Assembly: GCA_012728835.1 (NCBI GenBank)
Contig: JAAYEJ010000011.1
Span: forward strand, 50,990 to 114,989
Origin: Candidatus Brocadiaceae bacterium
GTDB taxonomy: Bacteria > Planctomycetota > Brocadiia > SM23-32
Length of the DNA: 64,000 nucleotides
Direction of reading: 5' to 3'
The notes under the pieces were generated by a model. The model did not search any database, had not been told where the DNA came from, and worked only from the letters and a program-made list of their open reading frames with translations. The position numbers and the translations under genes are program-made. Shown here piece by piece: positions 15,559-36,603 of this stretch (within the stretch, counting starts at the first letter, position 1; each line of letters opens with the position of its first letter).

Positions 15559-16048
15559 CGGCGATCATCCTCCGGATACGTCCCAGTACGTCCTCGGGCG
15601 TCAGCTTGCCGGCCACCTCGCCGTCGAAGGTCGCCGCCGGGGCCAGGCCGCAGGAGCCGAAGCACCGCGCGGTCAGCAGCGAAAGCTTGCCGTCGGCCGT
15701 CGTCTCGCCGGGCTTCAGGCCGTACTCCTGCTCCACGGCATCCAGAAGCGCCTGGGCGCCCTTGATGTAGCAGGCCGTGCCCGTGCACACCACGCACGCA
15801 TGCTCGCCCTTGGGCTTCAGCGTGAAAAAGTGGTAGAAGGTGGCCACGCCGTAGACGGCGCTGGGGGCCACGTGCAGGCTCGCCGCCACGTAGCGCAAGG
15901 CCTCGTCGTCGAGATAGCCGAATGCCTCCTGCACCGCGTGCAGGACCTCGATCAGCGCGTTCCGCTGGTAACCGAGGCGACGCATGGTCGCCGCAACGAT
16001 CTTCCACCGGCGGTCGTCCGAGGGGGGCTCGGGCCGCACAGAATCCAT
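15548..16048 (-). CDS. hoxE: Hydrogenase diaphorase 2Fe-2S subunit (NuoE-like).
   Basis: Internal Met (MDSVRPEPP) is at 16048. The 166-aa product has a thioredoxin-like fold, and the cluster Cys residues ([15 protein letters not shown]) are present. It is the first gene of the hoxEFUYHW operon. Confidence 0.8.
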
Positions 16049-16323
16049 GGCAGCGCTCCTCGCTCCGGAGTCGACGTTCGGAGCGGCGGATGGAGAGAAC
16101 GTTCGTGAAGTACGGACCTTTGTCGGCTCTGGACGGCCGCAGACAGGCGGGCAGTCAACCCGACCACTCATGGTATACAGCCCGGCCGACGGCTTCAAGG
16201 GAAAACGCCGGGATCGTCCGTGAGAATCCCCTCGGGTCGCCCCGCCCTATCCCCGGTCGCCGTTTGACTGCAGGGCCGGGCAGGGCTACGATGGGGGCTT
16301 CCCGCCGCACTGCTTCCGGGACC

Positions 16324-18279
16324 ATGTCGATGCGACTGAGGCTCCAGACTCGGGTCTTCCTGACCTTCGTGCTCGTGGTCGTGCTCTTCGTGCTCCTGTG
16401 CGCGGGGGCCGGCGCGATCATCATCGGGCGCACGGTCCTGGAGGAGGCCCAGCGGCGCGTCGGAGGCGATCTGCGATCGGCCTGGGCGGCAGTCAATGAC
16501 CGCAAGGAGAGCATGGGGCTCCTGATGGCCATGCTGGCCGGCGCCGAACCCATACGGGAGGCCTGCGTCAGCGCGAACCCGGCAACGTCGAGGATGCGTA
16601 TGGAGACGGCGCGCCGGCTGGGCGAGCTGGACTTCGTGTCGGTCGTCGACGCCGACGGACGCGTCGTGCTGCGCACCGTCGAACCCCACTCGCCCGGCGA
16701 CGACCTGTCGACCGATCCGTTCGTCTACCGGGCGCTTCGCGGCGAGACGCTGAGCGGATTCGCGATCCTCGAGCCCGAACGCCTGGAGGCCGAGGGACGC
16801 ACACTGGCCCGGCGCGCCTACATCGCCTTCGAGCCCACGCCGAAGGCCAAGCCGCGCCCCCAGGAGAGCGAGGCCGCCGGGATGGTCCTGATGGCCGCTG
16901 CGCCCATCCGGGACGACGGCGGGCGCATCCTCGGCGCCGTCTACGGCGGCGCACTGCTGAACCGGAACCACGACACGGTCGACGACATCCGCTCCACGGT
17001 CTTCGCCGACGAGACCTACAACGGGAAGCAGATCGGCGCCGTCACCGTCTTCCAGTGGGACGTCCGCATCGCCACCAACGTGTTCACCGCCGACGGCAAC
17101 CGCGCCATCGGCACGCGGGTGAGTTCGCAGGTGTATGACCAGGTGCTGGAGAACGGCCGGAGCTGGACGAGCCGCGCGTTCGTCGTGAACGACTGGTATC
17201 TGTCCGCCTACGATCCGATCCGGGACGTCGAAGGCCGCGTCATCGGCATCCTCTACGTCGGCGTGCTGGAGAGCCGGTTCAACGTGGTGCGCTCGCGCCT
17301 GTGGATGTTCTACGGGGCCCTCGCACTGGCGGCCGCCCTGCTGGTGCTCATCGTGGGCTACATCTTCTCGCGCCGCCTCACGCGGTCGCTGAGCGGGCTG
17401 GCCCGGGCCGCCGACCGCCTGGCCGCAGGGCGCCTGGACGTGCGCGTGCCGGAGCCGGCCGCCAATGACGAGGTGCGCGACCTGACGCGCGACTTCAACG
17501 CCATGGCCGACCGCCTGGAGGAACGCGAGGAACGCCTCCGGAACGCCAACGCCTCCCTGCAGAAGCTCAACTCCAGCTACCTGGAGATGCTCGGGTTCGT
17601 CTCCCACGAGCTGAAGAACACCCTCGGCGTCATCTACACCGCCGCACATGCGCTCTCCGAGGGGCTGGTCGGCCAACTCACCGAGCCCCAGGCCCGCATG
17701 GCCGGCAGCATCTGCCGCAGCATCGACACGGCCGTGAGCATGACGCGCAACTACCTGAGCCTGGCCCGCATCGAGAAGGGCGAGCTGGAGGTCGACCGGA
17801 AGCCCTGCGATTTCGTCCGCGACGTGGCCACCCCCGTGCTGGCCGAGTTCGCCCAGCCGATGGCCGACCACAAGGTCCGCCTCGTCAATGAACTGCCCCC
17901 CAGCGCCCCGCTGAAGGCCGACGCCAACCTGCTGTGCGTCGCCTTCCGGAACCTGATCGGCAATGCATTGAAATACGGTCGCCCAGCCGGGACAATACGC
18001 ATCGGCTTCTCCTCCGAACCCGACCGCTACCGCGTCGAGGTCTGGAACGACGGCCGAAGCATCCCGGCGGAGGAAGCCGAGCACATATTCCAGAAGTTCA
18101 CGCGCCTGTCCGACGACCCGGAGGCGGTCCGCAAGGGCACCGGGCTCGGGCTGTTCATCACCAGGGAGGTCGTCACGAAGCACGGCGGGGACATCTGGGC
18201 CGAACCGGGAAAGGGGGAAGGCACCAGCTTCGTCTTCACACTGCCCCGGGACGGTCAGCGAACCGATGCCGAAGTGTGA
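16324..18279 (+). CDS. Sensor histidine kinase: TM1, large periplasmic sensor domain (~280 aa), TM2, HAMP, HisKA, HATPase_c.
   Basis: Start MSMRLRLQTRVFLTFVLVVVLFVLL. A second TM segment at ~320, HAMP (RRLTRSLSGLARAADRLAAGRLDVRV), H-box LGFVSHELKNTL, and N/G boxes (NLIGNALKYG ... GTGLGLFITREVV). It is divergent from hoxE. Confidence 0.75.
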   Translation: MSMRLRLQTRVFLTFVLVVVLFVLLCAGAGAIIIGRTVLEEAQRRVGGDLRSAWAAVNDRKESMGLLMAMLAGAEPIREACVSANPATSRMRMETARRLGELDFVSVVDADGRVVLRTVEPHSPGDDLSTDPFVYRALRGETLSGFAILEPERLEAEGRTLARRAYIAFEPTPKAKPRPQESEAAGMVLMAAAPIRDDGGRILGAVYGGALLNRNHDTVDDIRSTVFADETYNGKQIGAVTVFQWDVRIATNVFTADGNRAIGTRVSSQVYDQVLENGRSWTSRAFVVNDWYLSAYDPIRDVEGRVIGILYVGVLESRFNVVRSRLWMFYGALALAAALLVLIVGYIFSRRLTRSLSGLARAADRLAAGRLDVRVPEPAANDEVRDLTRDFNAMADRLEEREERLRNANASLQKLNSSYLEMLGFVSHELKNTLGVIYTAAHALSEGLVGQLTEPQARMAGSICRSIDTAVSMTRNYLSLARIEKGELEVDRKPCDFVRDVATPVLAEFAQPMADHKVRLVNELPPSAPLKADANLLCVAFRNLIGNALKYGRPAGTIRIGFSSEPDRYRVEVWNDGRSIPAEEAEHIFQKFTRLSDDPEAVRKGTGLGLFITREVVTKHGGDIWAEPGKGEGTSFVFTLPRDGQRTDAEV

Positions 18280-18338
18280 CGAACGGCTCCTCAGAGACAC
18301 GCCCCGCGGACGACCATCCATGGGGAAGGAGGTGTGTC

Positions 18339-18719
18339 GTGGCCGCCAGGAAGGTCCTCCTCATAGACGATGAGAAGGAGTTCGTAGAGGTAACGAAGGT
18401 CCTGCTCGAGGCCAACGGCTTCGAGGTGGTGACCGCGTACGACGGCCAGAGCGGCACTCAGCAGGCCCTCGCCGAGAAGCCCGACGTGGTCGTGCTCGAC
18501 GTGATGATGGAGACGCGCACCGCCGGCTTCGACGTCGCCCGCCGGCTGCGGGCCAACGACGAGACCAAGGGCATCCCCATCATCATGCTGACGGCCGTCA
18601 ACCAGGAAGTGCCCTGGCGCTTCGAGCCGGACGACATCTGGCTGCCGGTCGACGTGTTCCTGGACAAGCCCGTGAGCCCGGAGCGCCTGCTGGCGGAAGC
18701 CAGAAAGGCCACCGGCTGA
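18339..18719 (+). CDS. Single-domain response regulator (CheY-like receiver, no output domain).
   Basis: GTG at 18339 lies 7 nt after GGAGG. KVLLIDDE ... VVLDVMM (phospho-Asp) ... IIMLTA ... LDKP. It lies directly downstream of the kinase. Confidence 0.65.
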   Translation: MAARKVLLIDDEKEFVEVTKVLLEANGFEVVTAYDGQSGTQQALAEKPDVVVLDVMMETRTAGFDVARRLRANDETKGIPIIMLTAVNQEVPWRFEPDDIWLPVDVFLDKPVSPERLLAEARKATG

Positions 18720-23873: not shown

Positions 23874-25400
23874 TCAATCCGTGCCCAGAAGCCACATATC
23901 GAAGCCGTATGCCGTCTTCGGCAACGGCAGGTGCGCGTGCCGGAGCACCTGGGCGCGCACCAGTCTGTCCTCCTCGCGCGCCAGTTCCTTGTGCACCTCG
24001 CTGAACTGGACGACGCGGGGGTTGAGCACGATGACCATCTCGGTGGTGCGGCGGGAGTTCTTCTCGCTGCCGAACAGGTGACCCAGGACAGGAATGCTCC
24101 CCAGCAGCGGGATCCTGGCGGTGGACTTCACGTCCTCGGTGCGTTTGAGGCCGCCGATGCAGACCTCCATGCCATCGCGCATCAGGACGGTGCCGGCCAC
24201 GGCGTTGTTGCGGACCATCGGCGTGCCCGAGGGAGTCGCGCCGATGATGCCGTTCATTTCGACGGCGTAGAGCAGTTCGGTCGTCTCCAGGCCGATGTAC
24301 GGTGTCAGGCTGAGTTCCAGGCCGACCTGGACGTCGCCGTTTCGCGTCAGACACCGCCCCTCCCACACGTCGTCGACGAAGGAGGCGCTGTCGTCCGTGC
24401 CGTCGACGGCGCGCTGGTCCAGTTCGTCCGGGCAGATGTCGAAGTGCAGCACCTCGTCGGCTGCCGACAGCGTGCCCACCTCGCCATTGCGGACGTTCAG
24501 CCGCCCGCTGGTGACGAGGCGCGCGCGGCCCTTGCGCACCATGAAATCGACGAACTCCGAGGTGAGCACGAAGTTGAGGCCGGCGTAATGGCCGCTCGCT
24601 GCCTCGCTGGACCCCCACCGCACGCACTGGAAGAGGTCCCTGCCGGGGCCGCACTTCCAGGCCACGAAGTCCAGCCCGAGGCTCAGGTCGTTGGTCAGTT
24701 CCACCTCGTAGACGGCCACGTCGAGCAGCAACTGAGGCGGGAAGACGTCGACCTCTTCCGCAATCTGCACGTATCTGGCCACGCGTGTGGGCTCGCCGCG
24801 GCAGAATATGGAATTCGCCGTGGTGTCGATGATGATCGTGCCGCCGTCGCCTCCGGCCGGCACGCGGGCGATCGCGTCCAGGTCTGCGGCATCCCGGAAC
24901 CGCGCCCTGTAGTAGGCCTGCTGCGACCCGTCGACGTCTTCCTGGAGCCAGGCCACGTCGAGGGCCTTCAGGGCCTCCTCGATGTAGGGCAACTGGAACT
25001 CGGGGGCGATCACCTGCAGCCAGGCCTTGCCGGCCACCTTGTCACGGATCACCTCGGCGCGCCCGCCCTCCTTGGCCGTGATCGTCCGGAAGACGTTGCG
25101 GACCTCGCGCGCAGACGCATTGTGGATCGGGTAGACGCCCACGACGTAGTCGTTGACCAGGTTCTTCTGGTTGACGCGCAGGACCTTCACGGTTGCGTCC
25201 TCACGCGCGTCGATGTTGATCTGCTCGTCCTGGAAGACGTAGTTGTCGATGCCGCTGGCGGTCGCCGTCGGGCTCGGATCCCCGCGGCGATTGGCCACGC
25301 CGGAGGCCTCGTCGCTGCCGCCGGCCGATGCGGTTCCGGCGGCGAACAGGCAGATGCCGAGGGCCGCCATCAGGACTGCGTGTTTGCCCGTGCTGCTCAT
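23874..25400 (-). CDS. Secretin-family outer-membrane channel protein (GspD/PilQ superfamily), paralog B.
   Basis: ATG 25400 (Met 17 of the track ORF; GAGGAGG RBS), signal peptide MSSTGKHAVLMAALGICLFAAGTASA. The C-terminal secretin signature is ARIPLLGSIPVLGHLFGSEKNSRRTTEMVIVLNPRVV. Confidence 0.75.
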   Translation of the reverse strand: MSSTGKHAVLMAALGICLFAAGTASAGGSDEASGVANRRGDPSPTATASGIDNYVFQDEQINIDAREDATVKVLRVNQKNLVNDYVVGVYPIHNASAREVRNVFRTITAKEGGRAEVIRDKVAGKAWLQVIAPEFQLPYIEEALKALDVAWLQEDVDGSQQAYYRARFRDAADLDAIARVPAGGDGGTIIIDTTANSIFCRGEPTRVARYVQIAEEVDVFPPQLLLDVAVYEVELTNDLSLGLDFVAWKCGPGRDLFQCVRWGSSEAASGHYAGLNFVLTSEFVDFMVRKGRARLVTSGRLNVRNGEVGTLSAADEVLHFDICPDELDQRAVDGTDDSASFVDDVWEGRCLTRNGDVQVGLELSLTPYIGLETTELLYAVEMNGIIGATPSGTPMVRNNAVAGTVLMRDGMEVCIGGLKRTEDVKSTARIPLLGSIPVLGHLFGSEKNSRRTTEMVIVLNPRVVQFSEVHKELAREEDRLVRAQVLRHAHLPLPKTAYGFDMWLLGTD

Positions 25401-25444
25401 CTCGTCGCCTCCTCTTGCGGGTTCGGAGTCGGGAAGGGTGGAGG

Positions 25445-26914
25445 TCACTCGGTGCCCTCGCGGTCAAAGAGCCACTGATCGAATCCGGCTTCGGTGGCCG
25501 GCGTCTGCACGGGCACCCGGCGGCGGGCCCGCGCGCGGATCAGCGCCGCGTCGATCTCGGTGTTGGCCCCGCCCATGGCACCGAAATCCCGGACGACGGC
25601 CGCCGAGAGAACGACGACGACGTTGCGCCGTTTGACCAGGTTCTGCTCGCTGCCGAACAGCCATCCGAGGACGGGCAGGCTGCCCAGAACCGGGATCTTG
25701 TTGCTCTGCTGCACCATCATCTCGCGGCCGTAGCCGCCGAGGACGACCTCTTCGCCGTCCTTGACCCGCAGGGAGGTGTCGAAGCTGCGCGCCACGAGCT
25801 GGGGCCGGCCGGTCGAGTCGAACCCCGTGTGGCCGGTCACTTCCAGTTCCAGGTCCAGCGTCACCCCCTGCGTGCCGACCAGTGGCTGCACCTTCAGCCG
25901 GACGCCGGACCGGGCGCTGTCCAGGGCGCGCTCTCGCTGGTCGCCGACCACGACGCGGTCGTCCACGCCGGCCCGCAGGCTGGTCCGCCAGTAGAAGATG
26001 TGGTCGCCGACGTCGATGACGGCCGGCCTGTCGTGCCGCGAGATCACCTTGGCGCTCGTCAGCACGCGGGCTTTGTCCTTGGCCACGAGGAAATCGAAGA
26101 ACCCGCTGTGCATGTTGAGCCGGTAGCTGTAGTGGTTGCTCGGCCCGCCGATCGAGTACCCGGGCACGTCGTCGGTCTCGGAGAGGAAGCCGCCGGCAAA
26201 GAGTTCGCGGCCGGGCCCGTTCTTCCACGACACGTAGTCCAGCCCGAGCGCCGTGTCGTTCTCCACGTTCACCTCGTAGAGAGTCGCCTCGATCATCACC
26301 TGCGCCGGGGGCTGGTCCAGCTCCGGCAGCCATCGTTCGATATCCTCGATGGCGCTCGGCACATCCTGGAACAGGTAGGCATTGACCGGCAGGTCCGCCA
26401 CCTGGTCACCGGTGGCCCGGTTCGGCGAGAGCACGGCATTGACCAGGGCGACGAAGGACGGATCGGCCACGCTCCGGTGCCGGGGGCGGTAGTAGAGCGT
26501 CCTGTCGCCCGACGACGTCGTCAGGCCCGGCACGTCGATGACCTCCATCAGCCGGTCGAGATACGGGATCTGGTAGATGGGCACCATCACGACCGCCTTG
26601 CCGCTTCGGACCGACCCGTGAGGGTCCGCCGGATCTTCGGGCTTGCCGTAGAGGAACCAGGCCCCCTCCTCGATCTCCGTGCTGCGGCGGATGAAGCGAA
26701 TCACCTCGTACGGGTTCACGTTGTCCAGGTCGTAGACCTTCGGCACGTAGCGGTTCGTCTGCGCCTTGTTGGTGGTACGCAGCACCCGGATCAGCGTCGT
26801 GGGCGCTTCGCCGGGTGACCGGAACTCCGCCCCGACCTCGCCCTGGGCGGCCGCACAGGGAGCGGCGCACAGAGCCAGAAAGACCGCTGTGAAGAGAGCC
26901 CTCCGCTTCATCAA
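25445..26914 (-). CDS. Secretin-family outer-membrane channel protein, paralog A.
   Basis: 489 aa, signal peptide MMKRRALFTAVFLALCAAPCAAA. Secretin signature NKIPVLGSLPVLGWLFGSEQNLVKRRNVVVVLSAAVV. It shares a C-terminal GFDxWL tail with paralog B. Confidence 0.75.
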   Translation of the reverse strand: MMKRRALFTAVFLALCAAPCAAAQGEVGAEFRSPGEAPTTLIRVLRTTNKAQTNRYVPKVYDLDNVNPYEVIRFIRRSTEIEEGAWFLYGKPEDPADPHGSVRSGKAVVMVPIYQIPYLDRLMEVIDVPGLTTSSGDRTLYYRPRHRSVADPSFVALVNAVLSPNRATGDQVADLPVNAYLFQDVPSAIEDIERWLPELDQPPAQVMIEATLYEVNVENDTALGLDYVSWKNGPGRELFAGGFLSETDDVPGYSIGGPSNHYSYRLNMHSGFFDFLVAKDKARVLTSAKVISRHDRPAVIDVGDHIFYWRTSLRAGVDDRVVVGDQRERALDSARSGVRLKVQPLVGTQGVTLDLELEVTGHTGFDSTGRPQLVARSFDTSLRVKDGEEVVLGGYGREMMVQQSNKIPVLGSLPVLGWLFGSEQNLVKRRNVVVVLSAAVVRDFGAMGGANTEIDAALIRARARRRVPVQTPATEAGFDQWLFDREGTE

Positions 26915-27669
26915 TCCGTCCTTTCCTGAGGAGATTCGCCGATTTCGAGAGCCTTGACGACACCGCTGTACGCGTTGACGGTGAAGGCCGCAGGCGCGCT
27001 CAGCGGATCATCCTCCGCGCCCAGCAGGACAACCCACACGTAGAGGCCGGTCTCCCCCAGCGGCACCAGAACCGCCCGGGCCGGCACGGTCCCATCGGCC
27101 CCCCCCTTCTCCCTTGCCAGGGCGACGGCCTGTCGGCGGACAACGATGCCCGAATAGGGGTCTCGCTCGAACATCCGCTCGTGCGACACGGCGAACGGCG
27201 CCGGCTCGGAGTAGCAGGTCGACAGAGGCGGCGAACCGGCCTCGGCCCCGCGGCAGCCGCTCAGGCCGACCATGAGCCCCCACTCGCCCGCCTCATCCGT
27301 CAGATCGCAGAACAGGAACGTGCGCCCGGTGCTCTCCCCCGGAGAGATGAGGCGGGGCTGCCCGGCGGCCTGGTTGGGGAGCACGGGCCGGCGCACCAGG
27401 AGTTCTCCCACGCCCGGCCGGCCCCGGCGGAACTTCAGCCCGTCGTTGTCCAGAGAGGGCACGAGCAGATCGCAGGCGCCCACGTTCGTCACGCTCACGG
27501 CCGCCCTCACCGGCTCGCCCCGTGCGTAGGTCGCCGAATCCAGCGAGAGCCGCACCTCCGCCGCGTGATCCGGCGGCCTCGTTGCCGCACAACCGACGGA
27601 CGCCGCCAACGCGGCGACCACGGACAAGAGCACGACGACGGACCGAATGCTTCTGACTCCCGTGAACAT
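26911..27669 (-). CDS. Predicted lipoprotein (signal peptide plus lipobox VGC), unknown function. Candidate secretin-associated (pilotin-like) component.
   Basis: ATG at 27669 (AGGAGGG RBS). MFTGVRSIRSVVVLLSVVAALAASVGC. Its stop overlaps the secretin-A start (26911/26914). Confidence 0.5.
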   Translation of the reverse strand: MFTGVRSIRSVVVLLSVVAALAASVGCAATRPPDHAAEVRLSLDSATYARGEPVRAAVSVTNVGACDLLVPSLDNDGLKFRRGRPGVGELLVRRPVLPNQAAGQPRLISPGESTGRTFLFCDLTDEAGEWGLMVGLSGCRGAEAGSPPLSTCYSEPAPFAVSHERMFERDPYSGIVVRRQAVALAREKGGADGTVPARAVLVPLGETGLYVWVVLLGAEDDPLSAPAAFTVNAYSGVVKALEIGESPQERTD

Positions 27670-27851
27670 GCGTCCGAATCCCTCCTGACCAGCCACTGTG
27701 AGATGACCTGAACCGCCGGGGGCGACGGGGCCTCCCCGTGCCCAACCGTCTCCGACCGCGACGGATCGCGGGCTCGTTCGCCGTTCGCGCCAGGACGTGT
27801 CACAGACAAGGAGCGCGCCCGTGATCCCATGTCACGACTGCGTGCATGCCA

Positions 27852-28043
27852 TCAGGACGGCGCCGACTGCGCCGAGCAGCAACATGCCGGTCCCTTTGAT
27901 GACAGCTGCAGGGGCCAGTCCTTGAGCAGGTCCGACAGGCGGCGTCGGGAGTGCCGCCACGCGGAAAAGTGTACAATCGATGCCGCCCAAGCCGCAACCA
28001 AACCGAACGCGATCAGGGAACCCATCAGTGAGCAGTCCGGCAT
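27852..28043 (-). CDS. Candidate small single-TM membrane protein (63 aa).
   Basis: ATG 28043 is preceded by a very strong SD (GGAAGGAGGTGAAGGGAC-ATG). There is a hydrophobic helix LMGSLIAFGLVAAWAASIV. It sits in a local lower-GC patch between the phoBR remnant and the lipoprotein gene. Codon usage is weaker than in neighbours. Confidence 0.25.
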   Translation of the reverse strand: MPDCSLMGSLIAFGLVAAWAASIVHFSAWRHSRRRLSDLLKDWPLQLSSKGPACCCSAQSAPS

Positions 28044-28185
28044 GTCCCTTCACCTCCTTCCTCACGGACGCTCGTCGAGCGAGCGCGCCTGTTGCCGAAT
28101 GGAAGGTTAATGCAGGGATGTTAGGGCAGGATGGAGGGCGAATGAGATTCGCGGGAGGTCCACCGGCCCGGACGCGGGACGCGAT

Positions 28186-28905
28186 CTACGCCGGCAGGAC
28201 CAGGCAGAAGGTGCTGCCCTCCCCCACGCGGCTCTGCACCGTCACCTGCCCGCCGTGCACCCTCGCGATGTGCTGCACGATGGCCAGGCCCAGCCCCGTG
28301 CCGCCGAGCGCCCGGCTCCGCGACTTGTCCACGCAGTAGAACGGCTCGAAGATGCGCTCGAGATGCTCGCCCGGAATGCCGCAACCGTGGTCGCGCACGC
28401 AGATGCGCACCCGCGAGTCGGCCCGGTCGGCCTCCACGGTCACCGTGGCCCCGTCGGGGCTGTACTTGACGGCGTTGTCCAGCAGGTTGACCAGCGCCTG
28501 CTCGATCAGCCGCGGGTTCATGCGCGCCTCGAGCGACGGCGGGCAGGAGGACTCGATGCGGATCCGTCGGTCGCCGGCTCGAGGTTCGCAGTCGGCGATC
28601 GCCGCGCAGATGACCTCCGCCGGATCGGTCGGTCTGAGGTCGATGGCTTCGGCCGCGGCTTCCCGTTCGATGCGGTAGAGGGCCAGCAGGTCGTCGATGA
28701 TGCGCAGGTCGCGATCGACGGCGATGACGCCCTCGGCCATGCTGGCCAGCACCGCCTCGTGCTCCCGGTTCTGGCGGCTGACCGTCTCGATGTGCTCGCG
28801 CAGGCCGGCGGCCAGGACCTGGTAGCCTTCGCGGGCCAGGCTGTAGCTGACGAGCTGGACGATGTCCTCCTCGTCGTCGACGACCAGCACGCTTTCTCGG
28901 GCCAT
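28186..28905 (-). pseudogene. In-frame phoB-phoR fusion remnant: receiver N-terminus (~34 aa) joined to a PhoR-like PAS start, then jumping into the distal HisKA helix and an intact HATPase_c. It lacks the phospho-acceptor His and the receiver Asp.
   Basis: MARESVLVVDDEEDIVQLVSYSLAREGYQV (REC N-terminus); LASMAEGVIAVDRDLRII (PAS start); DDLLALYRIEREAAAE (end of HisKA); NLLDNAVKYSPDG...DHGCGIPGEHLERIFEPFYCVDKSRSRALGGTGLGLAIV (N, G1, F, G2 boxes). No H-box was found. Confidence 0.5.
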
Positions 28906-29004
28906 GGCGGCTCCCTGACCACAGGACGCTTGATGCCCTTCATCGTCGCGCCGGACGGTTAGGATACGACAAAGGCCGAGTCAAAGAACCGTGTGGCAGC
29001 CGCC

Positions 29005-32268
<3,264 letters not shown>

Positions 32269-32316
32269 GGCCGCGTCGAGTCCTTCACGAACAGCCGCGC
32301 GCAGGGTGGCGCACGG

Positions 32317-33363
32317 TCAACTGATCTCTTCGATGAACCGCCGCACGTGCGCGCTCACCTCGCCCGGCAGCGGCGCCGTCGGCATGAACTGGATCCCCGT
32401 CGCCGTGCCGTCCGCCGAACGGATCCCCTCCACCGTGCCGTCGTTGACGTTCTCCCACAGCAGTTCCGCCCGATCGCTTCCGCACACGCTCCGGCGTTCC
32501 AGCACGACGGTATGCCGCTGTCCGGTCACCAGTGTCGCGCCGTCGGCGAGACAGCGCACGGGGTAGTTGACCCCGTGATGGCCGCGCCTCAGGAACGTCA
32601 GCGCGCAGCCGAGCGCCATGCCCAGCGCCACCTGGCCGAGGCCCCACGCGAAGACGGGCACGCGGCCCAGAAGGCCCTTCAGTGCCTCCACAGCCGCCTC
32701 AGGCGGCCGCGCCAGGGCCGGCCCGTCGCTGACGAAGACCGCGGCCGGCCCCCCGCCCAGGACCTCGTCGGCACGGGCGTCCGCCGCGTGCAGCACGGGC
32801 GCACACACCTGCCGAAGCTGCGCCAGCTCCGAACGCCGGATGCCCAGGTCCAGCACGGCGGCCGCCGGCCCGTCGCCCTGCGCATCCCCGCACCCGCCGC
32901 CGGGCGCGCATGCCGGACGCTCCATTCCCGCCAGCGACCGGCGCAGGGCGTCCGCATCCTCCCCGGCCGGCGCGATGGCCGCGGCCATCTCGCCGTGTTC
33001 CCGCAGGTGGACGGCCAGGCCGCGCGTGTCGACGTCGGTCAGGCAGGGCACGCCATTGCGCTGCAGCAGGGCCGCGAAGTCCTCCTCGGCCCGCCAGTGG
33101 CTGCGGCACGGGCTGAGCACCTTGACCACCAGGCCCGCCGGCTGCACCCGCGGCGATTCGGCAAAGGTCTCCGCCGCCCCCACGTTGCCGACCTCCGGAT
33201 AGGTGAAGGCCAGCAGCAGACCGCGATACGCCGGGTCGGTGACCATCTCCTGGAAGCCGACGACCGCCGTGTTGGCGACCACCCAGCCCCGGGCCACCTT
33301 CGCCTCGCCGGCCAGTCGGCCGTTCAGACGGGTGCCGTCGGACAGCAGAATGTATCCGTCCAT
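32317..33363 (-). CDS. carA: Carbamoyl-phosphate synthase small subunit homolog with a catalytically dead glutaminase domain (Cys-His-Glu triad all substituted).
   Basis: The N-terminal CPSase_sm domain is conserved (GEVVFNTSMTGYQE-like VVANTAVVGFQEMVTDPAYRG). In the GATase region VFGICLGHQ is replaced by VFAWGLGQV (Cys to Gly), and FQGHPEASPGP is replaced by IQFMPTAPLPG (His to Met, Glu to Thr). Confidence 0.8.
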   Translation of the reverse strand: MDGYILLSDGTRLNGRLAGEAKVARGWVVANTAVVGFQEMVTDPAYRGLLLAFTYPEVGNVGAAETFAESPRVQPAGLVVKVLSPCRSHWRAEEDFAALLQRNGVPCLTDVDTRGLAVHLREHGEMAAAIAPAGEDADALRRSLAGMERPACAPGGGCGDAQGDGPAAAVLDLGIRRSELAQLRQVCAPVLHAADARADEVLGGGPAAVFVSDGPALARPPEAAVEALKGLLGRVPVFAWGLGQVALGMALGCALTFLRRGHHGVNYPVRCLADGATLVTGQRHTVVLERRSVCGSDRAELLWENVNDGTVEGIRSADGTATGIQFMPTAPLPGEVSAHVRRFIEEIS

Positions 33364-33426
33364 CTCTGTTCGCTCTCGGCTCTGTTGACGCTTCGGAAGG
33401 TCCCCACGCCGACCGCACGGTCGCCT

Positions 33427-34359
33427 TCAGACATACTCGACGGTCGCCGGCGGCTTCGGCGTCAGGTCGTACAGGCACCGGTTGACGCCCGGAAGGCTCG
33501 TGATGCGCGCGCAGATCCGTTCCAGGGTCTCCCAGGGCAGCCGAGTGGGCGTTGCCGTCCGCGCGTCCACGCTCTCGATGCAGCGGACGACGATGATCCG
33601 GCCGAACTCCCGCCTGCCGTCCCGGATGCCGGTGGCCTTGTCGTTCAGAAGGACGGCCAGGTACTGGAACGCCCCGCTGTCGGCCAGCTCCTCCTCCACG
33701 ACGGCCGTGGCCGCCCGCACGACATCCAGGCGCTCCTCGGTCACCTCGCCGACGATGCGCGCGGCCAGCGCCGGGCCGGGGAACGGTATGCGCTCGCTGA
33801 TCTCCGCCGGCAGGCCCACGAGCCGGGCCACCCGGCGCACGCCGTCCTTGCGCAGCGTCTTCAGGGGCTCCAGCACGCCGTAGCCGTAGGCGTCCTGAGG
33901 GTCGATCCCCACCTGCGACAGGATGTTGTGCTGGCGCTTGACGCCCGCGACGGTCTCCTCGATGTCCGTCAGGATCGTGCCGTGAATGAGGAACCGTGCG
34001 CCCGATTCCCGCACGATGCGCGAGAAGACGCGGGAGTAGAACGTCTCGGTGATCGCCCGGCGCTTCTCCTCCGGATCGGTCACCCCCCTCAGGGCGCCCA
34101 GGAACTCGGCGCGTGCGTCCACGAGCGTCACGGGGATGCCCATCCCGGCAAACACCGCCACGACGCGCTCCGGCTCCCCCTCGCGCATCAGCGCGCTGTC
34201 GATGAAGAACGTCTTGAGCCGCTCTCCCAGCGCCCGGTGACCGAGCACGGTGCAGACGGCGCTGTCGACGCCGCCGCTGAGGGCGTTCACGGCGATGCCG
34301 TCGCCCACGGTGTCACGGATCTCAGCGACCTGCTCGTCCACAAATGCCCGGTCGTCCAT
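33427..34359 (-). CDS. guaA: GMP synthase ATP-pyrophosphatase subunit (GuaA C-terminal domain only; no glutamine amidotransferase domain).
   Basis: ATG at 34359 (Met 41 of the track ORF; GGAGA RBS). PP-loop NALSGGVDSAV, and the GMP-synthase C-terminal dimerisation tail ...LTPKPPATVEYV (KPPATIEWE-like). It is 310 aa. Confidence 0.75.
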   Translation of the reverse strand: MDDRAFVDEQVAEIRDTVGDGIAVNALSGGVDSAVCTVLGHRALGERLKTFFIDSALMREGEPERVVAVFAGMGIPVTLVDARAEFLGALRGVTDPEEKRRAITETFYSRVFSRIVRESGARFLIHGTILTDIEETVAGVKRQHNILSQVGIDPQDAYGYGVLEPLKTLRKDGVRRVARLVGLPAEISERIPFPGPALAARIVGEVTEERLDVVRAATAVVEEELADSGAFQYLAVLLNDKATGIRDGRREFGRIIVVRCIESVDARTATPTRLPWETLERICARITSLPGVNRCLYDLTPKPPATVEYV

Positions 34360-34590
34360 CGCTGTCTCCTGCAGGTACACCGGCGGCCCAAGCGGATGTC
34401 TCACGGGTTCCGAGGGCGCGGCGATGGGCCCACGAGGTGCACCGCCCGCGCGGGAATTCACCCGGGGATGGTATCGCATTCGCCGCCGGGACGCAAGTCA
34501 CAGATCGGCATGGGATTGCGGCCCTCCGGCCGTCCGTGCCCGTCCGTGTGTGCGTTCGGGTTGCACGCCCGCCGGAGCACCGGCCGCCGC

Positions 34591-34619
34591 TTGACAGCAG
34601 GGCCCGTGGTGCGTAGAGT
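34591..34619 (+). promoter_or_regulatory. Sigma70-like promoter TTGACA-17-TAGAGT upstream of the 34681 membrane-protein gene, with two CGTCCGTG 10-mer units (34531-34550) positioned just upstream of the -35.
   Basis: Read from sequence: ttgaca at 34591-34596 and tagagt at 34614-34619, a 17-bp spacer, with GTG start 34681 after a GGAGG RBS. Confidence 0.45.
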
Positions 34620-34680
34620 CCTTGTTCCGTACCCCGGCATCCATCGAGGCCGCCCCCGGGGCCCCTGCGGAGGTCATCGC

Positions 34681-36603
34681 GTGAGCTGGCGCGCATTCGC
34701 GATCGGGCTGCTCGCCATCGTCGTCGTCTGCCTCGTCGAGGTCTACAGCGGCGTCGTCCACCCCTACGGAAGCATCACGGGCACCACCCTGCCCGCTGCG
34801 GCGGTGCTCGTGCTGGTCCTGCTGACCGTCGGCCTCAACCCCCTCATCGGCCTGGTGCGGCGTGGCTGGGCGTTCCGCCGGGCGGAGCTGATGGTCGTCT
34901 ACGCCATGGTCCTGTGCGCCTGCGTCGTGCCGGGCGACGGCTTGGGGGCGTTCTGGTACTCGGTGCTGGCGGGCGGCCCCTACATGGCGCGCCGGGCGGA
35001 CCTGCACTGGGAAGACACCGGCTCGCTGACGGTGATCAGCGAGGACCTGGTGCTGAGCAAGGACCCGAAGTCGGTCGCCGCCCTGCAGTACTTCGAAGGG
35101 ACCCGGGAGGGACGCGTCCCGTGGCGCATGTGGGTGCGCCCGATCGTCGCCTGGTCGGTCTTCTACCTGCCGATGTTCCTGGCCGTGCTGCTTCTGTGCG
35201 CGATCCTGAGGCGCCAGTGGGTGGAGGTGGAGCGCCTCATGTTCCCCCTGGCGCGCATTCCCCTGGAGTTCACCGAGGGGAGTGCGCGGGACGGCCTGCT
35301 GCCGGATTTGTTCGGCAACCGGGCGTTCCTCATGGGGCTGCTGGTGAGCGTCGGGTTCCGCTTCCTGCGCGCGGTGCCCCTGTTCTTCGACGCCGAACGC
35401 CGATGGGACCTGGCCCTGCCGCTGGCCGGCATCTTCTCAGGCACGCCGTTCGAGCTGATGAACTTCCACGACATCACGCTGAACTTCACGGCGATCGGGT
35501 TCGGATACCTCGTCCCGGCGGACGTCTCGCTGAGCGTGTGGTTCTTCTTCCTGTTCAGCCGCGTCGAACTGCGCGTCGCCCACAGCCTGAACATCACCAG
35601 CGCCCAGGGAGGCACCTACAGCAAGCTGATGAAGTGGCAGCAACTGGGCTCGAACCTCGTGTTCGTCATCGGCATGTTCTACGTCGCACGGCGCCATCTG
35701 TGGACGGTCCTGAAGAAGGCCCTCTTCCTCTCCCGCACAGACGAGGACGCCTCGGAACCCGTCAGCTACTTCTGGGCGTTCTGGGGCTTCCTGCTCGCCA
35801 TGGCCTTCTGTATCGGCTGGCACATGTACTACGACGTGCCGCTCTGGGTGGCCGCCTACGGCATGGCCCTGCTGTTCTGCTGGTTCCTGGCCTACGCCCG
35901 CGTGACGGCCCAGGGCGGGCTCTACATCGCGCGTCCGATGTGGTGGATCCAGGAGACCATCCACAGCACCACGGGCGCGCTCACCGGCAGCGGCGCCGTG
36001 CTGATGACGGCCCACGAGAACATGCTGATGTACGGCTCCAACATCATGCTCATGCCCGTCGCCATGGACGTCTTCCGCATCTCCGACGCCATCGGCCGGC
36101 GCAAGCGTCTGCTGGTCCCCGCCATCATGTGCGGATTCGTGGTGGCGATCGTCGTCACCTCGTACATGTTCCTGAAGATGGCCTACGGCGTCGGGGCCGT
36201 CAACTTCGCCTACTCCTGGGCGACCATGAACGTGCCCCGCTACGTCTTCGACTGGTCCCACGCGATCATCAAGCAGCCTCGCCAGCAGATGCACTTCTAC
36301 CCGGGCTCGTTCGCCTTCGGCTTCCTCCTGACCGGCTTCATCATGCTCATGCGGGGGCGCTTCTACTGGTGGCCCATCCATCCGATCGGCCTGCTGGCCT
36401 GCAACAGCTACGCGGCCCAGCGCATCTGGGTGCCCTTCTTCCTCGGCTGGCTGATCAAGACCCTCCTGATGAAGTTCTCCGGCGGCCAGAAACTGCGCAC
36501 CGTCCGCGTCTTCTTCATCGCCTACATCGTCAGCGAGATCACCCTCGGCGGCCTCTCGACCGCCGTGCGCATGATCTCCGGAGGAGCCGTCCCCGAGTTC
36601 TGA
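34681..36603 (+). CDS. Large polytopic membrane protein (640 aa, at least 12 predicted TM helices, Trp/Phe/Tyr-rich), unknown function.
   Basis: GTG 34681 lies 7 nt after GGAGG. It is the C-terminal part of the artefactual 2536-aa track ORF. Hydrophobic segments run throughout (AIGLLAIVVVCLVEVY, AAVLVLVLLTVGLNPLIGLV, FYLPMFLAVLLLCAIL, ...). Confidence 0.65.
   Translation: MSWRAFAIGLLAIVVVCLVEVYSGVVHPYGSITGTTLPAAAVLVLVLLTVGLNPLIGLVRRGWAFRRAELMVVYAMVLCACVVPGDGLGAFWYSVLAGGPYMARRADLHWEDTGSLTVISEDLVLSKDPKSVAALQYFEGTREGRVPWRMWVRPIVAWSVFYLPMFLAVLLLCAILRRQWVEVERLMFPLARIPLEFTEGSARDGLLPDLFGNRAFLMGLLVSVGFRFLRAVPLFFDAERRWDLALPLAGIFSGTPFELMNFHDITLNFTAIGFGYLVPADVSLSVWFFFLFSRVELRVAHSLNITSAQGGTYSKLMKWQQLGSNLVFVIGMFYVARRHLWTVLKKALFLSRTDEDASEPVSYFWAFWGFLLAMAFCIGWHMYYDVPLWVAAYGMALLFCWFLAYARVTAQGGLYIARPMWWIQETIHSTTGALTGSGAVLMTAHENMLMYGSNIMLMPVAMDVFRISDAIGRRKRLLVPAIMCGFVVAIVVTSYMFLKMAYGVGAVNFAYSWATMNVPRYVFDWSHAIIKQPRQQMHFYPGSFAFGFLLTGFIMLMRGRFYWWPIHPIGLLACNSYAAQRIWVPFFLGWLIKTLLMKFSGGQKLRTVRVFFIAYIVSEITLGGLSTAVRMISGGAVPEF

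Follow-up and report, generated by a model that had tools for sequence, protein, structure and literature searches.

A probable phoB-phoR fusion remnant in the regulator slot of a Planctomycetota Pho locus

What has become of the phosphate regulator at a Pho locus that keeps its transporter genes? In the stretch of DNA analyzed here (64,000 nucleotides from a Candidatus Brocadiaceae bacterium, hereafter the window), an open reading frame (ORF) at 28186..28905 on the minus strand, with an ATG start and 239 aa followed by a stop codon, opens like the response regulator PhoB and ends like the histidine kinase PhoR. An earlier note made from the sequence alone had read it as a degenerate fusion left by two in-frame deletions of a phoBR operon. 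It rested in part on two peptides, quoted as a receiver N-terminus and the start of a PhoR-like PAS domain, and both are indeed found in the ORF; the minus-strand placement corrects the note. Is the ORF such a remnant, or a genuine atypical protein? We conclude, with a probability of roughly 86%, that it is what two deletions left of the organism's orthologous phoB-phoR operon, a remnant unable to signal.

Three pieces of PhoB and PhoR in one reading frame

The ORF has the composition of a real gene, with a GC content of 0.74/0.46/0.90 at the three codon positions in a window of 69.7% GC. ENA and JGI gene calls give the full 239 aa, and the NCBI annotation starts at an internal methionine, Met56, to yield a 184-aa 'hypothetical protein GXY85_01490' (28186-28740, minus strand; P0001). 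In Pfam, residues 130-238 (28192-28518) match HATPase_c with an E value of 1.4e-31, which bears out the complete C-terminal HATPase_c domain described earlier, and all four boxes of the catalytic and ATP-binding (CA) domain are kept: N (NLLDNAVKYS), G1 (DHGCGI), F (FEPFY) and G2 (GGTGLGL). Response_reg is matched in part only, residues 6-42 aligning with profile positions 1-38 at a score of 14.8 bits (cutoff 30.2), and HisKA, PAS, HAMP and Trans_reg_C give no Pfam match in the protein even at E<=1. The best NCBIfam models are PnpS (NF046044) and the proteobacterial PhoR (TIGR02966), with scores of 182.9 and 161.9 that both fall below the respective equivalog cutoffs of 400 and 334.2.

Pairwise alignment to PhoB and PhoR, which the earlier note had proposed as a way to map the breakpoints, resolved the protein into three colinear pieces separated by two junctions. 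The first piece (residues 1-30; 28816..28905, minus strand) corresponds to beta1, alpha1 and the start of beta2 of the PhoB receiver. It is identical at 25 of 30 positions (83%) to PhoB of a related contig, L095, and 80% identical to the phoB' fragment of another, L094, with 81% nucleotide homology that runs in continuously from the upstream gene carB. Its best PDB match is the receiver of B. subtilis PhoP (1mvo), residues 4-33 aligning with residues 4-33 at an E value of 8.5e-6. The acidic DD pair at residues 10-11 is kept. The homology to PhoB stops at residue 30, and the phospho-acceptor Asp (about position 53) is gone; the receiver is thus cut mid-domain after about 30 residues and is not the whole foldable receiver seen in hybrid histidine kinases.

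The second piece (residues 35-70; 28696..28803, minus strand) is the PhoR linker that follows HAMP together with the first part of the PAS domain. Residues 34-70 are identical at 29 of 37 positions (78%) to the linker and PAS start of PhoR from contig L091, and residues 31-70 are 53% identical to residues 38-77 of protein P0002. The third and longest piece (residues 71-239; 28189..28695, minus strand) comprises helix 2 of the PhoR dimerization domain (DHp) and the complete CA domain, and is 66-70% identical to PhoR of L091 and L089 and 56-59% identical to P0002 and PhoR of L001. Comparison with full-length kinases used residues 71-239 only; a whole-protein MAFFT alignment misplaced the N-terminus onto the H-box.

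What is missing can be read from the same alignments. PhoB lacks its receiver from beta2 onward, including the phospho-acceptor Asp, and its DNA-binding domain. PhoR lacks the transmembrane, sensor and HAMP region, the PAS core, and DHp helix 1 with the H-box stretch RDFxAxVSHELRTP. With PhoB homology ending at residue 30 and the H-box deleted, both phospho-acceptors, the receiver Asp and the kinase His, are absent, as the earlier note had claimed.

The MAFFT placement also raises a different reading of the N-terminal part, in which residues 14-70 would be a complete but degenerate DHp of a point-mutated pseudo-kinase, its His changed to Tyr (DIVQLVSYSL versus DFVANVSHEL), behind a short N-terminal tail. 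A colinear BLASTP alignment of query residues 14-239 to residues 151-372 of P0004 agrees with this placement, but the missing HisKA match does not, nor do the origins of the segments: the PhoB identity of residues 1-30 continues at the nucleotide level into carB, and the 78% identity of residues 34-70 to the PhoR linker and PAS start compares with a match of 5/10 to the H-box. The geometry of the two repeats described below, moreover, explains the junction exactly. The segment identities refute a degenerate DHp at residues 14-70, and we regard the pseudo-kinase reading as very improbable.

The locus in relatives and across assemblies

Orthologous loci were retrieved by using the neighboring lipoprotein as a query, and then the intact PhoR of L091. 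In five of them (L095, L096, L001, L091 and L089), the slot occupied by the remnant is exactly that of phoBR. The 29-kb JGI contig L095 carries a guaA-like gene, carA, carB, phoB (229 aa), phoR (589 aa), pstS-C-A-B and phoU, followed by the genes of a receiver-only regulator and a Cache-HAMP kinase in convergent orientation. This is the neighborhood of the window, with phoBR intact. Its proteins are 86% (carB), 73% (PstS), 81% (PstC), 80% (PstA), 88% (PstB) and 81% (PhoU) identical to those of the window. L096 has phoB-phoR-pstS at the locus. L001, which carries phoB, phoR (588 aa), a small PAS ORF, a lipoprotein gene, two secretin genes and pstSCAB-phoU, is colinear with the window from 28905 down to 18741, and in L091 and L089 an intact phoR lies directly upstream of the lipoprotein gene. 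PhoR has the domain order HAMP-PAS-HisKA-HATPase in these relatives. The window itself holds no second copy of phoBR, and a tblastn search with L001 PhoB finds no DNA-binding domain anywhere in it. A scan of a genome collection yielded no sequence identical to the window, its sole match being the distant relative L001. That the Pho two-component regulator has been lost with Pst and PhoU retained, as the earlier note had it, stands for this locus only. The gene context given there is correct for the downstream pstS-C-A-B-phoU on the same strand and incorrect in making the ORF the first gene of its same-strand run, since the guaA-like gene, carA and carB precede it.

The earlier note had further suggested that control of the Pho regulon was taken over by the kinase and CheY-like pair beside phoU. 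A kinase with Cache, HAMP, HisKA and HATPase domains and a receiver-only regulator are encoded there in the window (15922-18719, plus strand) and in L095 (14718-17107, minus strand), converging on phoU in both; the comparison was made in L095, as the L001 locus ends too soon after phoU. The two pairs are 74% (kinase) and 82.5% (receiver) identical, and the regulator has no DNA-binding output domain. Since the pair coexists with an intact phoBR in L095, its presence in the window is no evidence of a takeover, and the suggestion is unsupported. The pair is an ancestral, conserved neighbor of the Pho locus.

Several features of the neighborhood vary among these loci. Between phoR and pstS lies a cassette of a lipoprotein gene (no Pfam match) and two short genes of the secretin family in tandem (489 and 524 aa), found at 23874-27696 (minus strand) in the window, at 3239-7132 in L001 and at 1839-3616 in L091, where at least the lipoprotein and first secretin genes are present before the contig ends. 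It is absent from L096 and from L095, even though PhoR of L095 is 97% identical to that of L091, and this distribution marks the cassette as a variable insert inside the Pho locus. We speculate that it might encode an outer-membrane channel linked to phosphate uptake. A small PAS-only ORF lies between phoR and a small membrane-protein gene in L089 (1164-1574, 136 aa) and in L001 (2531-3010, 159 aa). A tblastn search finds no counterpart of the L001 protein in the window, the interval of just 208 nt that separates phoR from the lipoprotein gene in L091 contains no called gene, and L094 has no room for such an ORF before its small membrane ORF.

The small membrane-protein gene itself, which in the window lies between the remnant and the lipoprotein gene (27832-28043, minus strand), carries a frameshift when compared with L089 and L090. 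Those relatives encode a 70-aa protein with two transmembrane helices; its residues 10-51 correspond to a 63-aa ORF of the window (27852-28043) and its residues 49-70 to a different frame, ending at 27832 (IKGTGMLLLGAVGAVLMACTQS). All independent assemblies show the same shift, close to 27890-27900.

On the other side of the remnant, the guaA-like gene upstream of carA (33427-34479, minus strand) has a GMP_synt_C domain and a weak NAD_synthase match with no glutamine-amidotransferase domain; it is called at 310 aa with the same domains in L082 and L095. The GATase match of carA (32317-33363, minus strand) is comparatively weak, at an E value of 6.6e-10. A 2536-aa ORF on the plus strand (28993-36603), picked by its GC3, was rejected as a gene. 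It lies opposite carB, carA and the guaA-like gene (29005-34479), in antisense orientation, and extends past them; most likely it is open only because stop codons are rare at about 70% GC.

Since the window derives from a metagenome-assembled genome, the fusion might be an assembly artefact in which an intact phoBR region was collapsed or mis-joined. Its recurrence speaks against this. The complete gene, identical over its 239 aa, is present in five other assemblies from different ENA (ERZ764825, ERZ778039) and JGI (3300009607, 3300009659, 3300009647) samples, in each case between carB and the small ORF and lipoprotein gene, and all five reproduce both junctions. On a sixth contig (JGI 3300009770), which begins within the gene a little past junction 1, the portion present matches perfectly, junction 2 included. 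Over window positions 26900-29300 (2.4 kb), nucleotide identity in the five is 99.96-100%, and the few SNPs among the assemblies all fall outside the gene. No intact allele above 70% identity is present among 5.8 billion proteins. Repeats as short as those at the two junctions (9 nt and about 5-7 nt) are also far below the k-mer lengths typically used in assembly. The collapse that the earlier note had named as a possible refutation was thus not found, and we consider an artefact highly improbable. The assemblies represent one near-clonal population (99.93-100% identity), so the invariance of the sequence among them carries no evolutionary information.

The same database searches address whether the ORF belongs to a genuine conserved family of this length and architecture, another outcome that the earlier note had said would overturn its reading. 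The only identical entry among the 5.8 billion proteins is P0001, the gene itself, from the 'Candidatus Brocadiaceae bacterium' MAG; all other matches there are full PAS-HisKA-HATPase kinases at no more than 60% identity. A metagenome scan with the protein returned no close relative (best match 52% identity). Querying 1.84 billion representatives with residues 1-75, which span both junctions, found no protein that shares both. An open reading frame is all that favors such a family; none of these protein searches found a homologue with the two junctions, and the closest relatives carry full-length genes at the same locus, which makes it extremely improbable.

Two junctions and the deletions behind them

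Junction 1 (residues 31-34, L-A-A-G; 28804..28815, minus strand) was located by codon comparison with L095 phoB and with phoR of L095 and L091. It joins phoB codon ~30 to phoR codon ~234, with a loss of about 1.3 kb (~1301 nt in L095 coordinates). At this point L095 phoB reads GTC GGC TGC GCG GCC and phoR of L095 and L091 reads ATG GCG GCG AGC CTG CGC. Past PhoB Val30, the remnant follows PhoR Met234-Ala-Ala-Ser-Leu-Arg, reading Leu-Ala-Ala-Gly-Leu-Arg. The string GCGGC is present at the junction point in both parental genes, and the exact crossover would fall inside the 12 nt of the junction.

Junction 2 (28696..28704, minus strand; gatgatgcg on the plus strand) is a single copy of the 9-nt direct repeat CGCATCATC, which encodes R68-I69-I70. 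Intact phoR of L091 and L095 carries CGCATCATC twice, in the same codon phase and 147 codons apart; in L095 PhoR, the copies occupy codons 271-273 in the PAS domain and codons 418-420 in DHp helix 2. In the remnant, a single copy is left and the 432 nt between the two are gone, a deletion of exactly 441 nt (147 codons). The two deletions together removed about 1.7 kb. Because both copies share a codon phase, deletion 2 necessarily keeps the reading frame, and deletion 1 had a 1-in-3 chance of fusing the frames openly.

These observations suggest the following course. Deletion 1 would have removed phoB from codon ~31 onward, with the receiver Asp and the DNA-binding domain, its stop codon, the spacer, and phoR codons 1 to ~233, with TM1, the sensor, TM2 and HAMP. 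Its ends would have joined at a short GC-rich Ala-Ala string, bringing phoR into the phoB reading frame. Deletion 2 would have arisen between the two in-phase CGCATCATC repeats, whether by replication slippage or by illegitimate recombination, taking the PAS core and the DHp helix 1 that carries the phospho-acceptor His. The remnant keeps the start codon and ribosome-binding site of phoB. The two in-frame deletions of a phoBR operon proposed in the earlier note are in this way borne out by the origins of the segments, the positions of the junctions and the repeat structure of the intact relatives.

A second, more extreme deletion of phoBR is present at the same site in L094, a 1.5-kb JGI contig of 68% GC in which the intergenic region is the same and the C-terminus of carB is 84% identical to that of the window. 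Here, phoB codons 1-30 are followed by a piece of PhoB around residues 80-100 and then by the last 22 phoR codons out of frame, and this tail is followed by the start of the small membrane ORF. The breakpoints differ from those of the window, which keeps PhoR parts absent from L094, and L094 in turn keeps a PhoB part absent from the window. Neither remnant is nested in the other, so neither can derive from the other. By carB, the window, L094 and the intact L095 are roughly equidistant, with L094 slightly closer in nucleotide identity to L095 (86.0%) than to the window (83.2%). The simplest reading is that the window and L094 represent two independent losses of phoBR.

In-frame fusions of PhoB' and 'PhoR with other breakpoints were also the top two matches of the junction-spanning search. 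P0128 has its junction within L092 481-1072, where the PAS start is followed by another deletion and a change of frame, and P0127 within L093 287-943, ending in an apparent premature stop. Like the remnant, both place a truncated receiver N-terminus in frame with an internal part of PhoR; unlike it, they come from unrelated organisms (GC 42% and 54%, respectively) and from single short Logan contigs, with no junction in common. They may be genuine sporadic accidents of the kind seen here, or errors introduced by assembly at low coverage.

Retained sequence, function and known systems

We then considered the state of what the deletions left. A conservation-outlier test considered 50 positions with an invariance of at least 95%, and the remnant departs from the family at 3 of them (R188P, R191C and K211Q). 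These were rejected as signs of decay: all three recur in the intact PhoR of L091, and the first two in that of L089, which has R at the third. Relative-rate tests with L001 as outgroup were not significant (19:14, p=0.49; 16:10, p=0.33), and synonymous sites are saturated at the 66-70% amino acid identity that separates the remnant from its nearest relatives. The retained part is 59% identical to L001, a value close to that of the neighboring secretins and somewhat below those of the pst genes and phoU (cluster range 45-79%). The term "degenerate" used in the earlier note thus holds for the deletions and not for the retained residues, in which neither the outlier nor the relative-rate test detects decay. 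This absence of detectable decay indicates that both deletions are probably recent. The open frame, the intact CA motifs and the lack of detectable acceleration in divergence are equally compatible with recent deletion and with continued selection.

Upstream, a MAFFT alignment of the window with L094, L095 and L096 reveals a putative sigma70-like phoB promoter element (28956..28984, minus strand), for which a promoter function is suggested by consensus. It reads TTGACA-17 nt-TAACAT in the three relatives and TTGACT-17 nt-TAACCG in the window, which alone among the four loci departs from TTGACA/TAACAT and has lost the final T of the -10 hexamer. A consensus scan for promoters and terminators over 27500-29300 returned nothing at its threshold. 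A Shine-Dalgarno-like GGGAG (28911..28915, minus strand) lies upstream of the ATG and is inherited from phoB; L094 has GGGAA and L095 GGGAG at this place. A candidate Pho box (TTGAC-N7-TTGTC), seen upstream of the remnant and of L095 phoB, was dropped: it is not conserved in L094 and L096 and is absent upstream of the pst genes.

Two nearby changes, the frameshifted small membrane ORF and the altered -10 hexamer, were counted as collateral decay in favor of a remnant; the single open frame after both deletions and the full set of ATP-binding motifs in the CA domain were counted against it. The latter two observations, together with the retained start codon and Shine-Dalgarno sequence, the lack of detectable accelerated divergence and the invariance across assemblies, are also what a neofunctionalized small protein would offer. 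The fusion would then be expressed and useful as a free CA domain tethered to DHp helix 2, which might have a modulating effect in trans on a different histidine kinase, or else act on Pst/PhoU. Nevertheless, the in-frame outcome was automatic for one deletion and a one-in-three event for the other, and invariance within one near-clonal population is uninformative. No other organism in the database searches has the architecture, and the related L094 lineage has done away with the entire CA domain, which shows that this domain is dispensable in the clade. The -10 hexamer is weakened relative to three relatives, and a canonical dimeric four-helix bundle cannot form without DHp helix 1. Neofunctionalization is, in our judgment, unlikely. 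Its more specific form, in which the 239-aa protein is made as a stand-alone ATP-binding kinase module that titrates or acts in trans on a sensor kinase or on Pst/PhoU, its state reflecting selection and not recency, we rate as unlikely too, if anything slightly more so.

We therefore return to the ORF as a phoBR remnant. A product with neither Asp nor His, no dimerization hairpin and no DNA-binding domain would support neither phosphotransfer nor transcriptional control, and the remnant is probably without function. In this one Planctomycetota population, the Pho two-component regulator encoded at the locus has been lost and pstSCAB-phoU kept, a loss that may reflect a relaxed need for Pho induction. 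The independent loss in a related lineage hints, if modestly, that selection on Pho induction is relaxed or negative in the clade. A milder adaptive view, in which the loss of PhoBR would be adaptive and convergent in phosphate-rich habitats, fits the independent deletion in L094.

A comparable outcome is known from marine picocyanobacteria, in which the equivalent pair (sphSR) is lost or frameshifted while the pst genes persist: Prochlorococcus CCMP1375 and Synechococcus CC9311 and CC9902 have no sphR, sphS is frameshifted in MIT9313, and these losses have been linked to phosphate availability (PMC1906773). The present case differs in lying in the Planctomycetota and in consisting of two deletions that leave an open fused frame, not a frameshift or a clean absence. 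A search of the literature on phoBR pseudogenes and on secretins in the Pho loci of Planctomycetes found no direct precedent for this fusion.

Against PhoB/PhoP regulators of the OmpR family, the first 30 residues, start codon, Shine-Dalgarno sequence and promoter region of the remnant are orthologous to phoB of the relatives. Unlike these regulators, the remnant has only beta1-alpha1 and the start of beta2, with no phospho-acceptor Asp and no winged-helix domain. The PhoR/PnpS kinases (TIGR02966, NF046044) are the source of the C-terminal 170 residues and of the 36-residue linker and PAS-start piece, and these PhoR-derived parts are 59-70% identical to orthologues in related Planctomycetota. 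Unlike those kinases, the remnant lacks the transmembrane, sensor and HAMP regions, the PAS core and the H-box His, scores less than half of both equivalog cutoffs, and is predicted to be unable to autophosphorylate. The case matters chiefly for annotation: domain-based pipelines could mistake it for a histidine kinase, and it should be flagged as a phoBR remnant. As for its origin, deletion between short direct repeats by replication slippage or illegitimate recombination is well known, and junction 2, a clean natural example involving 9-nt repeats, bears its textbook signature with nothing unusual about it. Altogether, the remnant is ordinary gene decay, unusually well resolved, and adds no new mechanism or class of system to those known.
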